A stretch of 64,000 bases of DNA from Octopus sinensis. Its lineage: Eukaryota. Within the stretch, counting starts at the first letter, position 1. Each line of letters starts with the position of its first letter. This document shows positions 16,552-62,315 of the stretch, piece by piece. The stretch is from positions 177,134,001-177,198,000 of the forward strand of contig NC_042997.1 of NCBI RefSeq assembly GCF_006345805.1, in the 5' to 3' direction. The notes below the pieces were generated by a model that was not told the DNA's origin, searched no databases, and worked only from the letters and a program-made list of their open reading frames with translations. The translations under genes and the position numbers were made by a program.

Positions 16552-16657
16552 TATATAAGAGTGGTAACAGTGACAATGATGTTTCGGCTTGAAAGCCCTC
16601 ATCAGAAGTGTCTGATGAAGTCTAGCAAGTTTCGACGTCACTGTCACCTCACTTGTA
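16552..16657. ncRNA. Back-to-back hammerhead-like cores forming an imperfect palindrome
   Basis: Minus strand CUGAUGA-G-GGCU-UUCA-AGCC-GAAA-CA-UCAU-UG-UC (16605 to 16572); degenerate inverted copy TCTGATGA..GTCACTGTCACC on plus from 16611. Confidence 0.55.
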
Positions 16658-18800: not shown

Positions 18801-18919
18801 TATATATATATATATATATAAATATAGTGTAATAAATAAAATATATGCATACATACAAACATATATGTACGTACCTACATCTACATGTATATATACATGC
18901 ATATATAAATATATATACG

Positions 18920-19170
18920 TGTGTACAGGACACCACAAATAGACGTAGAACTCAACGAGAAACGAAAAAGTAAAAACAGCATGGAACGGACCATTTTTTA
19001 ACAACGAAAAAACAGAGTACAAGACAACTACACAAGGAAAAATCCCCTTCATCAGCTGTCCCTAGTTCAACTCCAGCGTGTTTCGAAGGTGAGGACAGAA
19101 CACATCTCGTCGAACTAGTCCTTCATGCGAAAGAATTAAATAAAATTCCTTTGCAGAGAGGTAAAAACAA
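18920..19170 (-). mobile_element. Short interspersed repeat carrying a permuted hammerhead-like motif (paralog of 4610-4838)
   Basis: Alignment with 4610-4838; located in a TA-rich microsatellite context. Confidence 0.7.
19043..19118 (-). ncRNA. Candidate hammerhead ribozyme with non-canonical (pseudoknotted) strand order
   Basis: Minus strand: CUAGUUCGAC-gaga-UGUGUU-CUGUCC-uca-CCUUC-GAAA-CACG-cugga-GUUGAACUAG-GGACAG-CUGAUGA-AGGGG; intact CUGAUGA, GAAA and GUU triplet; helices covary with the 4.7 kb copy. Confidence 0.55.
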
Positions 19171-19784
19171 GAAAAGAATGTGACAAAAACAGGACGTAAA
19201 AACAATACAATTAAAAACAAATACAAAATAAAAATACAATTACAAAAAATACAGTACAAGAAGGAATATATATATATATACACCATTTAGTTTTGGGGAT
19301 GGAGCTAAGTAACGTCTAATAAGACAACGGAGATGCCGTTTGATGGATATTTTTAGGACCGCAAAGGGTTTTTACAATGACAGTCCACTTATTGTATTGG
19401 GTAATTTCTTTTGAAATGGCGTCGTTTTCTTAATTCAATAACTTCGTTTAGGAGGAGCAATTGTTTGTTTGCTTTCGTTGATTTTTTTTTTAGTATTTTT
19501 TGTTATATATTTATATTAGTCCAGAAATAGCTTAACCTTATTCTCTGGACATTGAAGGATTGGTATTATTGATTTGTTCAAAATTGTTCTTGAAAAGAAC
19601 TACAATAGCAGCAGGAGCAGTTTCTGCAACAGCAGCGGCTGCAGTCGCAGCAACAATAGCTACAAGAATAATTTCGTTTCCGAAGAGAACGCAGCCAGAA
19701 GCAACAACACGAGTAAAAGTATCAATTTTTGCAGCAGCAGCAACAGCAGCAGCACTAACAAGCCTACAAGAGATCCTCCAAGTA

Positions 19785-53073: not shown

Positions 53074-53428
53074 CTAAGCAATAAAGGGTTTAGCAACGAA
53101 TTGCCTTACCACATACCGAATTTAGAAATAGCAGTCAAAGAGTTATAGCTATTCTTCTACTTTTTAGTAGAAGAAATAGCTATAACTCTTTGACTGCTAT
53201 TTCTAAATTCGGTATGTGGTAAGCAATTCGTTGCTAAACCCTTTATTGCTTAGTATATATATAAAACGAATTGCCTTACCACATACCGAATTTAGAAATA
53301 GCAGTCAAAGAGTTATAGCTATTTCTTCTACTTTTTAGTAGAAGAAATAGCTATAACTCTTTGACTGCTATTTCTAAATTCGGTATGTGGTAAGGCAATT
53401 CGTTGCTAAACCCTTTATTGCTTAGTAT
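53071..53428. repeat. Two tandem near-perfect palindromes (arms up to ~90 bp, 4 nt T loops)
   Basis: ACTAAGCAATAAAGGG..CTTCTACT-TTTT-AGTAGAAG..CCCTTTATTGCTTAGT, repeated from 53265. Confidence 0.95.
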
Positions 53429-61730: not shown

Positions 61731-62315
61731 AAGGGGGCGAGCTGGCAGAAACGTTAGCACGCCGGGCGAAATGCGTAGCCGTATTTCGTCTGCCGTTTCG
61801 TTCTGAGTTCAAATTCCGCCGAGGTTGACTTTGCCTTTCATCCTTTCGGGGTCGATTAAATAAGTACCAGTTACACACTGGGGTCGATATAATCGACTTA
61901 ATCCGTTTGTCTGTCCTTGTTTGTCCCCTCTGTGTTTAGCCCCTTGTGGGTAGTAAAGAAATAGGTATTTTGTCTGCCGCTAGGTTCTGAGTTCAAATTC
62001 CGCCGAGGTCAACTTTGCCTTTCATCCTTTCGGGGTCGATTAAATAAGTACCAGTTACACACTGGGGTCGATATAATCGACTTAATCCGTTTGTCTGTCC
62101 TTGTTTGTCCTCCCTGTGTTTAGCCCCTTGCGGGTAGTAAAGAAATAGGTATTTCGTCTGTCTTTATGTTCTGAGTTAAAATTTCGCTGAGGTCGACTTT
62201 GCCTTTCATCCTTTCGTGGTTGATAAATTAAGTACCAGTTGCGTACTGGGGTCGATGTAATCGTCTGCCCCCCCTCCCACAAAATTTCGGGCCTTATGTC
62301 TAGGGTAGAAAAGAA
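61731..62315 (+). mobile_element. SINE B trimer
   Basis: Full head, then two restarts at AAAGAAATAG|GTATTT(C/T)GTCTG; the last unit ends in the alternative tail. Confidence 0.93.

Follow-up and report, generated by a model that had tools for sequence, protein, structure and literature searches.

A Hammerhead-Like Motif of Rearranged Strand Order in an Octopus Repeat, with a Stem II Probably Completed by Its 5' Flank

How can an RNA carry every core element of a hammerhead ribozyme and present them in an order that allows no nested fold? The question is raised by a locus on the minus strand of the window, the 64,000-nucleotide stretch of Octopus sinensis DNA analyzed here (RefSeq assembly GCF_006345805.1, contig NC_042997.1, positions 177,134,001 to 177,198,000 of the forward strand). 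A preliminary description, made from the letters of the stretch, had noted GUU, GAAA and CUGAUGA at this place, and all of them are present. They follow one another as cleavage strand, GAAA strand and CUGAUGA strand (S-G-C), in the reverse cyclic order that the description had recognized. The motif has neither the C-G-S cyclic order nor the nested three-way junction of hammerhead types I to III, and its fold must be pseudoknotted.

The preliminary description named no natural precedent for the order; the literature has one. The type-SGC hammerheads, named for their S-G-C order, cleave in cis at 0.007-0.19 per minute, and their cleavage needs all four helices and is co-transcriptional (Eckert et al. 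2023, PMC10085705). Their source is metatranscriptomes, and that paper places none in the genomes of known organisms; the published non-circular set, as given there, consists of 583 predicted type-SGC sequences from environmental RNA, the organisms being unknown, and two CSG sequences. In a literature search that consisted mostly of papers outside subscription, no S-G-C or C-S-G hammerhead in an animal genome and no break at A9/G10.1 was found reported. The S-G-C order itself is thus already published, and what is new is its occurrence in an animal genome, a stem II probably supplied from the 5' side and the retrozyme-like host unit.

The locus carries an S-G-C hammerhead motif within a non-coding unit of ~770 nt. 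Taken as a whole, the sequence comparisons described below make it probable that its RNA forms a pseudoknot in which the 5' flank provides one strand of stem II, that it cuts itself after 19099, and that the unit is copied by a Penelope-like reverse transcriptase.

Layout of the motif in the window

The CUGANGA, GAAA and NUH core is complete in the window copy, its three stems being correctly adjacent, and stem II can be satisfied by either of two partners (Table 1). Stems I and III form as first described, the proposed 10-bp outer helix pairs throughout, and the expected 3-nt linker (19092-19090) joins stems I and II, a trait that the motif shares, along with its order, with type-SGC. The limits first given, 19043..19118, prove too short at the 5' end, the best stem II strand lying just outside them. 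The cut is predicted between 19099 and 19098, by analogy with hammerheads and type-SGC.

Table 1. Features of the motif and its host repeat (window coordinates; RNA letters read on the minus strand)
Feature	Positions	Strand	Remarks
5'-truncated copy (~445 nt) of the ~770-nt tandem non-coding retrozyme-like unit	18824..19268	-	between TA runs
Candidate 5' arm of a helix that would close the A9/G10.1 break	19125..19129	-	would pair with 19035-19031; by eye
Strand b (GAAGG), putative 10.x strand of stem II from the 5' side	19120..19124	-	five Watson-Crick pairs with 19089-19085
Outer helix, 5' strand	19109..19118	-	pairs with 19071-19062, 10/10 including one G-U
Purine-rich internal loop, 5' side	19105..19108	-	opposite 19076-19072; tandem G-A beside outer helix
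Stem III, 5' strand, and G-U-U triplet	19099..19104	-	19104-19100 pairs with 19081-19077; U17 = 19099
Stem I, 5' strand	19093..19098	-	6/6 Watson-Crick with 19061-19056
Linker joining stems I and II	19090..19092	-	3 nt; read from the sequence
Stem II 11.x strand (CCUUC, 19089-19085), GAAA (19084-19081), stem III 3' strand	19077..19089	-	
Outer helix 3' strand, directly continuing as stem I 3' strand	19056..19071	-	
CUGAUGA core	19049..19055	-	
Extra A and GGGG (rival stem II partner)	19036..19048	-	predicted local hairpin with the following UUUUUCC instead

A descriptor combining S-G-C order with stems I and III matches the window once, at 19043..19118, and finds nothing in 100 shuffles of the window. 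Among the 150 of 177 Rfam matches listed for the window (E<=1), none is a hammerhead and none overlaps the element, in keeping with the early expectation that standard models would miss such a motif. The window copy has two private changes, a G-to-U change at 19125 and another at 19104. Core conservation cannot be judged from pattern-selected hits; in the less biased contig data, variants reaching at least 5% of contig depth fall on 0 of 26 core and stem II positions and on 9 of the 56 others (p=0.051), which is only suggestive. Two features of the contigs were rejected as signs of cleavage. Contig ends at 19103 adjoin the variant positions 19104-19105 and do not coincide with the predicted cut; the reduced depth on the 5' side of the cut site is present in DNA runs too.

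The window has other features of its own. Hammerhead cores of canonical C-G order with a short stem II lie on the minus strand at 16605 and 40171 and are probably Penelope-type type I motifs; CUGAUGA also occurs at 16612 on the plus strand, with cores overlapping on both strands at 16605-16612. A two-copy 171-nt tandem of long perfect palindromes occupies 53095-53428, and the repeat that makes up a 184-nt tandem (2.6 copies) at 61781-62263 is also present, in inverted orientation, at other places in the window.

Families of the motif and the partner of stem II

The preliminary description had proposed that copies be collected across the genome, and they proved plentiful. A 25-mer from the motif has 289 exact copies in the 2.72-Gb genome (control, 0), and the 40 matches that rank best over the whole motif have 97-100% identity. 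The motif sequence is also present in contigs from four DNA-type runs with four organism labels; no RNA run is listed as containing it, and four runs presumed to be RNA have it in contig form only. A generic pattern of S-G-C order matches the genome 9,736 times, compared to 975 for the reversed control. The figures are 9,372 versus 859 without G after CUGANGA, and 364 versus 116 with it. Several thousand related motifs are present; they make up nine or more families, among which stem I covaries. Copies of the focal family (A) are ~97% identical, and the families do not align with one another by sequence.

The loci fetched were the first 100 of the 364 G-pattern matches, 30 of the 9,372 non-G matches and 30 relatives of one locus, L066. 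The G-pattern loci fall into related groups in 70 of 100 cases and pair in stem I at four or more of five positions in 58 of 100; the 30 singletons, the pair L137/L146 and L121 were left unassigned. Both stems I and III are found in 26 of the 30 non-G loci, two of which were likewise left unassigned. Thirteen of 30 Naiad-like loci were parsed, including one duplicate of L066, and 60 focal loci, seven of them duplicates or overlaps, gave 53 distinct ones.

Strands were swapped between families in a test on 110 copies of nine families, the p-values of which overstate independence because the families are related. Stem I differs between families yet pairs within them (p=1/362,880). The outer helix is likewise family-specific (p=3/362,880); in the window copy the strand leading into stem I has its partner in a 5' strand (10/10 positions), and not in an interaction strand 3' of stem II as in type-SGC. 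For stem II, the 5' strand pairs with the 11.x strand of its own family at -5.5 kcal/mol versus -3.5 for other families (p=125/362,880), the own family being the best partner in only 4/9 rows and 5/9 columns. In contrast, the strand right after CUGANGA, where type-SGC has its stem II strand, has no same-family complementarity (p=0.56, or p=0.28 in a wider 3' window). Control windows far upstream and far downstream gave p=0.62 and 0.25.

The 5' partner strand closely precedes the outer helix, at 21-28 nt upstream of the cut. In a fixed register selected so as to maximize pairing, its positions 1-5 pair in 82, 86, 94, 97 and 75 of 108 copies, compared to 69, 58, 57, 43 and 56 for the 3' strand with no insertion and 75, 67, 56, 60 and 47 with one insertion. 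At position 1, G stands opposite C11.1 (G-C) in nine of ten groups, and the commonest pair at position 2 varies by family, being A-U, G-C, C-G, U-A or G-U. The paired strands (5' strand/11.x strand) read GAAGG/CCUUC in family A, GCACC or GCGCC/GGUGC or GGCGC in C, GCCCA/UGGGC in D, GGGGC/GCCCC in G, GGCCC/GGGCC in H and GACAC/GUGUC in N. Family G is C-rich after CUGAUGA, and there the 3' side pairs at positions 1-4 in 0-1 of six copies and the 5' strand in 5-6 of six. In family E the 5' strand does not pair with C11.1 (0/13 copies); pairing from position 2 and a G after CUGANGA suggest an intermediate that combines a stem II of one pair with a three-way junction.

A stem II formed after CUGANGA would make G dominate the next position. 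G is found there in less than 4% of pattern matches, so that a 3' stem II is unlikely to be general. The stem II described at the outset, GGGG with CUUC, therefore stands only in part: it can form and is kept in family A, but its conservation fails across the nine families and in the 9,372 of 9,736 genomic matches that have no G at this place, the 5' strand being the family-specific partner instead.

Within family A the choice is closer. The 3' GGGG pairs at positions 1-4 in 13, 14, 14 and 11 of 14 copies in one subgroup and in 18, 18, 14 and 12 of 18 in the other, published type-SGC RNAs have one inserted nucleotide at the place of the extra A (PMC10085705), and strand b can also form a hairpin of its own with pyrimidines immediately upstream of it, the minimum-energy state of the constrained fold. 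All this would also suit a focal family that is plain type-SGC (extra A, GGGG with CUUC) and whose 5' strand is inhibitory or alternative, as in a two-state switch. We regard that reading as unlikely, given that two of its four possible pairs with the 11.x strand (C-G, U-G, U-G, C-G) are G-U, that its 3' complementarity is not family-specific, and that families G and N and the Naiad elements of Acropora and Pomphorhynchus have no 3' partner. Folding argues in the same direction. Unconstrained folding cannot represent a pseudoknot, and the fold results rest on constrained folding, in which 27 of 30 focal-family copies have an 11.x strand that favors the 5' partner, with ~1.1 of five expected pairs in typical copies versus ~0.03 for the 3' GGGG. 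The 3' GGGG stem II is thus probably not the main one, the partner being supplied by the 5' flank, although in the focal family it can still form as a weaker rival.

With stem II completed from the 5' side, the RNA would fold in cis as a pseudoknot in which the 5' strand occupies the 10.x position, and the chain ends would lie between A9 and G10.1. Such a fold would be a circularly permuted type-SGC: the 3' module of the published RNA HRIMA-1 (5-nt stem II strand, purine, interaction strand) would have moved to the front and been joined to stem III via the bent internal loop. Since a module of this kind begins the RNA here and continues into stem III, the best reading of the window motif is type-SGC in circularly permuted form, the opening falling between A9 and G10.1.

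It is improbable, in our judgment, that the conserved structure cleaves inefficiently, acting for example as a retrotransposon-protein binding or priming signal, or that the window copy is dead. Cleavage is predicted here from the sequence; the phosphate region at A9/G10.1 binds Mg2+, and the break at this point removes a backbone link inside the core. The window copy has its two private changes as well, and eight of nine predicted Xenopus retrozymes went uncleaved in vitro in one report (bioRxiv 10.64898/2026.07.22.740005). However, the core nucleotides are all intact, the complete core pattern is ~tenfold above its control, published consensi of four phyla have the same core and helices, and the private changes weaken flanking pairs only.

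A kink-turn consists of a 3-nt bulge followed by tandem G-A and A-G pairs. Spacing of this kind, with both GA at the expected offsets, is found in the loop between stem III and the outer helix in 12/17 copies of family B, 5/12 of C, 4/8 of D and 2/13 of N; together B, C and D have it in 21/37 copies versus 1/32 in the focal family A.

Two of the other families have features of their own. Family E (L074, L078, L092 and others) has an internal loop with an AGUA/GAA pattern. Family H (L226, L235, L243, L246, L252, L253, L174) is compact, and its core is closely like the Naiad motif of Pomphorhynchus laevis. A family-H-like pattern has no match within the window and at least 120 in viral contigs; of the 80 listed, three have a downstream CUGANGA, and none has a like architecture by eye.

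The host unit and its insertion

The window copy of the host unit matches the L008 monomer, as delimited by two ribozymes, at its positions 602-771 (93%) and 1-275 (98%). A full monomer between two ribozymes is found head to tail at three of the 53 distinct loci (L008, L040, L054), which gives tandem non-coding units with one hammerhead each, as in non-LTR retrozymes, and what precedes the ribozyme on its 5' side is in every case the 3' part of the unit itself. In 48 of the 53 loci the 3' end falls at either of two sites, ~+275 and ~+355 relative to the cut, and 47 loci run into TA repeats. The 5' ends are ragged, with lengths of 0 to 734 nt, and an inverted piece is present in five loci. The unit thus has the Penelope-like insertion pattern of fixed 3' ends, 5' truncation, inverted 5' pieces and microsatellite targets. 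L162 and L164 are tandem arrays of sister family A3, each with three to four units that are 820-837 nt long and 95-99% identical within the array.

A trans dimer of two units, also considered in the preliminary description, found no support and is very improbable, even with the head-to-tail units, the sister-family arrays of 824-832 nt and the dimeric cleavage known for salamander retrozymes (PMC7229834), since all helices are long enough to form within one molecule, type-SGC RNAs cleave co-transcriptionally in cis (PMC10085705), and tandem repetition preserves the reverse cyclic order, so that a canonical C-G-S arrangement would need three units.

No ORF was seen in the unit, and it does not carry the RT and GIY-YIG ORF of an autonomous Penelope-like element; such an ORF is fused to one of the 53 loci and lies about 1 kb away at one more. 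At two loci, L161 and L157, a family-A unit is fused to the end of a Neptune-like ORF with no TA run between them. The ORF at L161 is 647 aa long and 5'-truncated, with an RT match. These fusions suggest template jumps by a Neptune-like enzyme, and they could also be nested insertions at common AT-rich sites. The GTAAGT beside the L161 junction was considered as a splice donor and rejected, being the ordinary 3' end of a subfamily.

The Neptune-like element at L161:4391-6331, also found at L165-L194, is very young, with copies 99-100% identical and an intact 647-aa truncated ORF. It has frequent inverted pairs and two alternative 3' ends into (TA)n. In 30/30 of its loci the 3' end has no CUGANGA ribozyme core, and no homology to the unit was found; on both grounds the family was rejected as the autonomous parent and kept as a possible mobilizer only.

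A Neptune-type Penelope-like enzyme may mobilize the focal family, which would have its motif in common with Naiad 3' ends. Self-cleavage after G-U-U at 19099 would trim the RNA of this non-autonomous element, and multimeric transcripts, once cleaved, would give monomers that may circularize as in other retrozymes. For one Penelope-like element, insertion in vitro did not depend on cleavage (Frangieh 2024, PMC11167929).

The rewired motif is also found in family G (L230, L231, L247, L248, L225, L098), where it lies within the 3' UTR of a non-LTR retrotransposon, ~120 nt away from the element's 3' end, and it is therefore not confined to Penelope-like elements. The host ORF ends in zinc knuckle and restriction-like endonuclease motifs, and we take this element to be HERO-like. 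Its upstream ORF has nothing significant in Pfam; in Atlas it falls in unnamed eukaryotic clusters, one of which has zf-RVT in 23% of its members.

Naiad elements and known systems

Naiads were reported to be without a canonical hammerhead, some of them flagged 'HHR_core' or 'HHR_half_core' (Craig et al. 2021, PMC8557442). Their consensus file (54 consensi) was searched for CGAAAC (60 of 81 places listed) and for four CUGANGA words (first seven places each), and the form with a 5'-supplied stem II was recognized by eye in seven consensi from four phyla: one ctenophore, three Acropora, Pomphorhynchus laevis (Naiad_Plae) and two Octopus (Naiad_Obim, Naiad_Ovul). Their 5' helices, also judged by eye, have the same position as those of the genome families and other sequences. 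Eight more consensi, in the nematode section, have C-S-G order with full stems by eye (PMC8557442 supplement, File S5, parts 13-16); their species come from the headers for three Nippostrongylus entries and from the file order for the remaining five. The other 39 of 54 gave nothing with the words used, which miss motifs split by line ends. Family N of the octopus genome matches published octopus Naiad 3' ends. The rewired motif is likely the self-cutting ribozyme that some Naiads were reported to lack.

On balance, we lean towards a wider reading in which animal retrotransposons hold a large and overlooked class of active non-circular hammerheads, including a seventh permutation opened at A9/G10.1 with a 5'-completed stem II. 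The class would be ancestral in Naiad, with two or more circular permutations occurring among ctenophores, cnidarians, acanthocephalans, molluscs and nematodes; it would have spread to retrozymes and to a non-LTR element and would exceed, in one genome, all published non-circular hammerheads more than tenfold.

These motifs bring a non-circular RNA permutation into animal genomes, where thousands of copies and a setting of named mobile elements open it to study. They would also break the assumption behind the six-permutation scheme, that CUGANGA is inseparable from its stem II strand. The original report assumed that CUGANGA and the adjacent stems are not interruptible beyond 1-2 nt (PMC10085705). 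How Naiads thrive without a hammerhead may have an answer here, in that part of the clade has one that is invisible to type I descriptors, and animal ribozyme censuses made with type I-III descriptors are therefore likely incomplete. To the only two CSG sequences published earlier, the nematode-section Naiads add eight by-eye readings. A scaffold with free ends at A9/G10.1 would be a new design option as well.

Compared to known systems, the window motif is closest to type-SGC. Type-SGC typically has a stem I-II linker of three nucleotides and one inserted nucleotide after CUGANGA, and the 3' end of HRIMA-1 consists of CUGAUGA-U, a stem II strand of 5 nt, a single purine and then the interaction strand (PMC10085705). 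The window motif has the same S-G-C order, an intact core, a ~3-nt linker, and a stem II of 5 bp, after which come a single purine and an interaction helix. By its layout against the HRIMA-1 alignment, the outer helix is the equivalent of the type-SGC stem I-II interaction helix, and in both the interaction strand pairs with the strand leading into stem I. They differ in that type-SGC has the stem II partner and interaction strand after CUGANGA, whereas the window motif has both before stem III. The published descriptors require CUGAUGAG or CUGAUGAUG and then stem II, and they would not match the window motif (PMC10085705). Type-CSG, known from two metagenomic sequences (Eckert 2023, PMC10085705), has the same cyclic block order with the chain ends elsewhere and is not the form found in the window.

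The unit as a whole resembles the non-LTR retrozymes, which are non-coding, low-GC and tandem, have one hammerhead each, range from monomers to multimers and are tied to Penelope-like elements, and its 770 nt fall within the retrozyme range of 51-972 bp given in one survey (Li et al. 2026, bioRxiv 10.64898/2026.07.22.740005). Metazoan non-LTR retrozymes are defined by type I hammerheads (PMC7229834; bioRxiv 10.64898/2026.07.22.740005); the unit has an S-G-C non-circular hammerhead instead and is known here from DNA. With Naiads it has in common the (TA)n preference and the inverted pieces; it differs in being without an ORF, and the likeness to them here is one of motif layout only. Its insertion pattern fits the Penelope-like pattern (Craig 2021, PMC8557442) and internal initiation at AT-rich targets (Frangieh 2024, PMC11167929).
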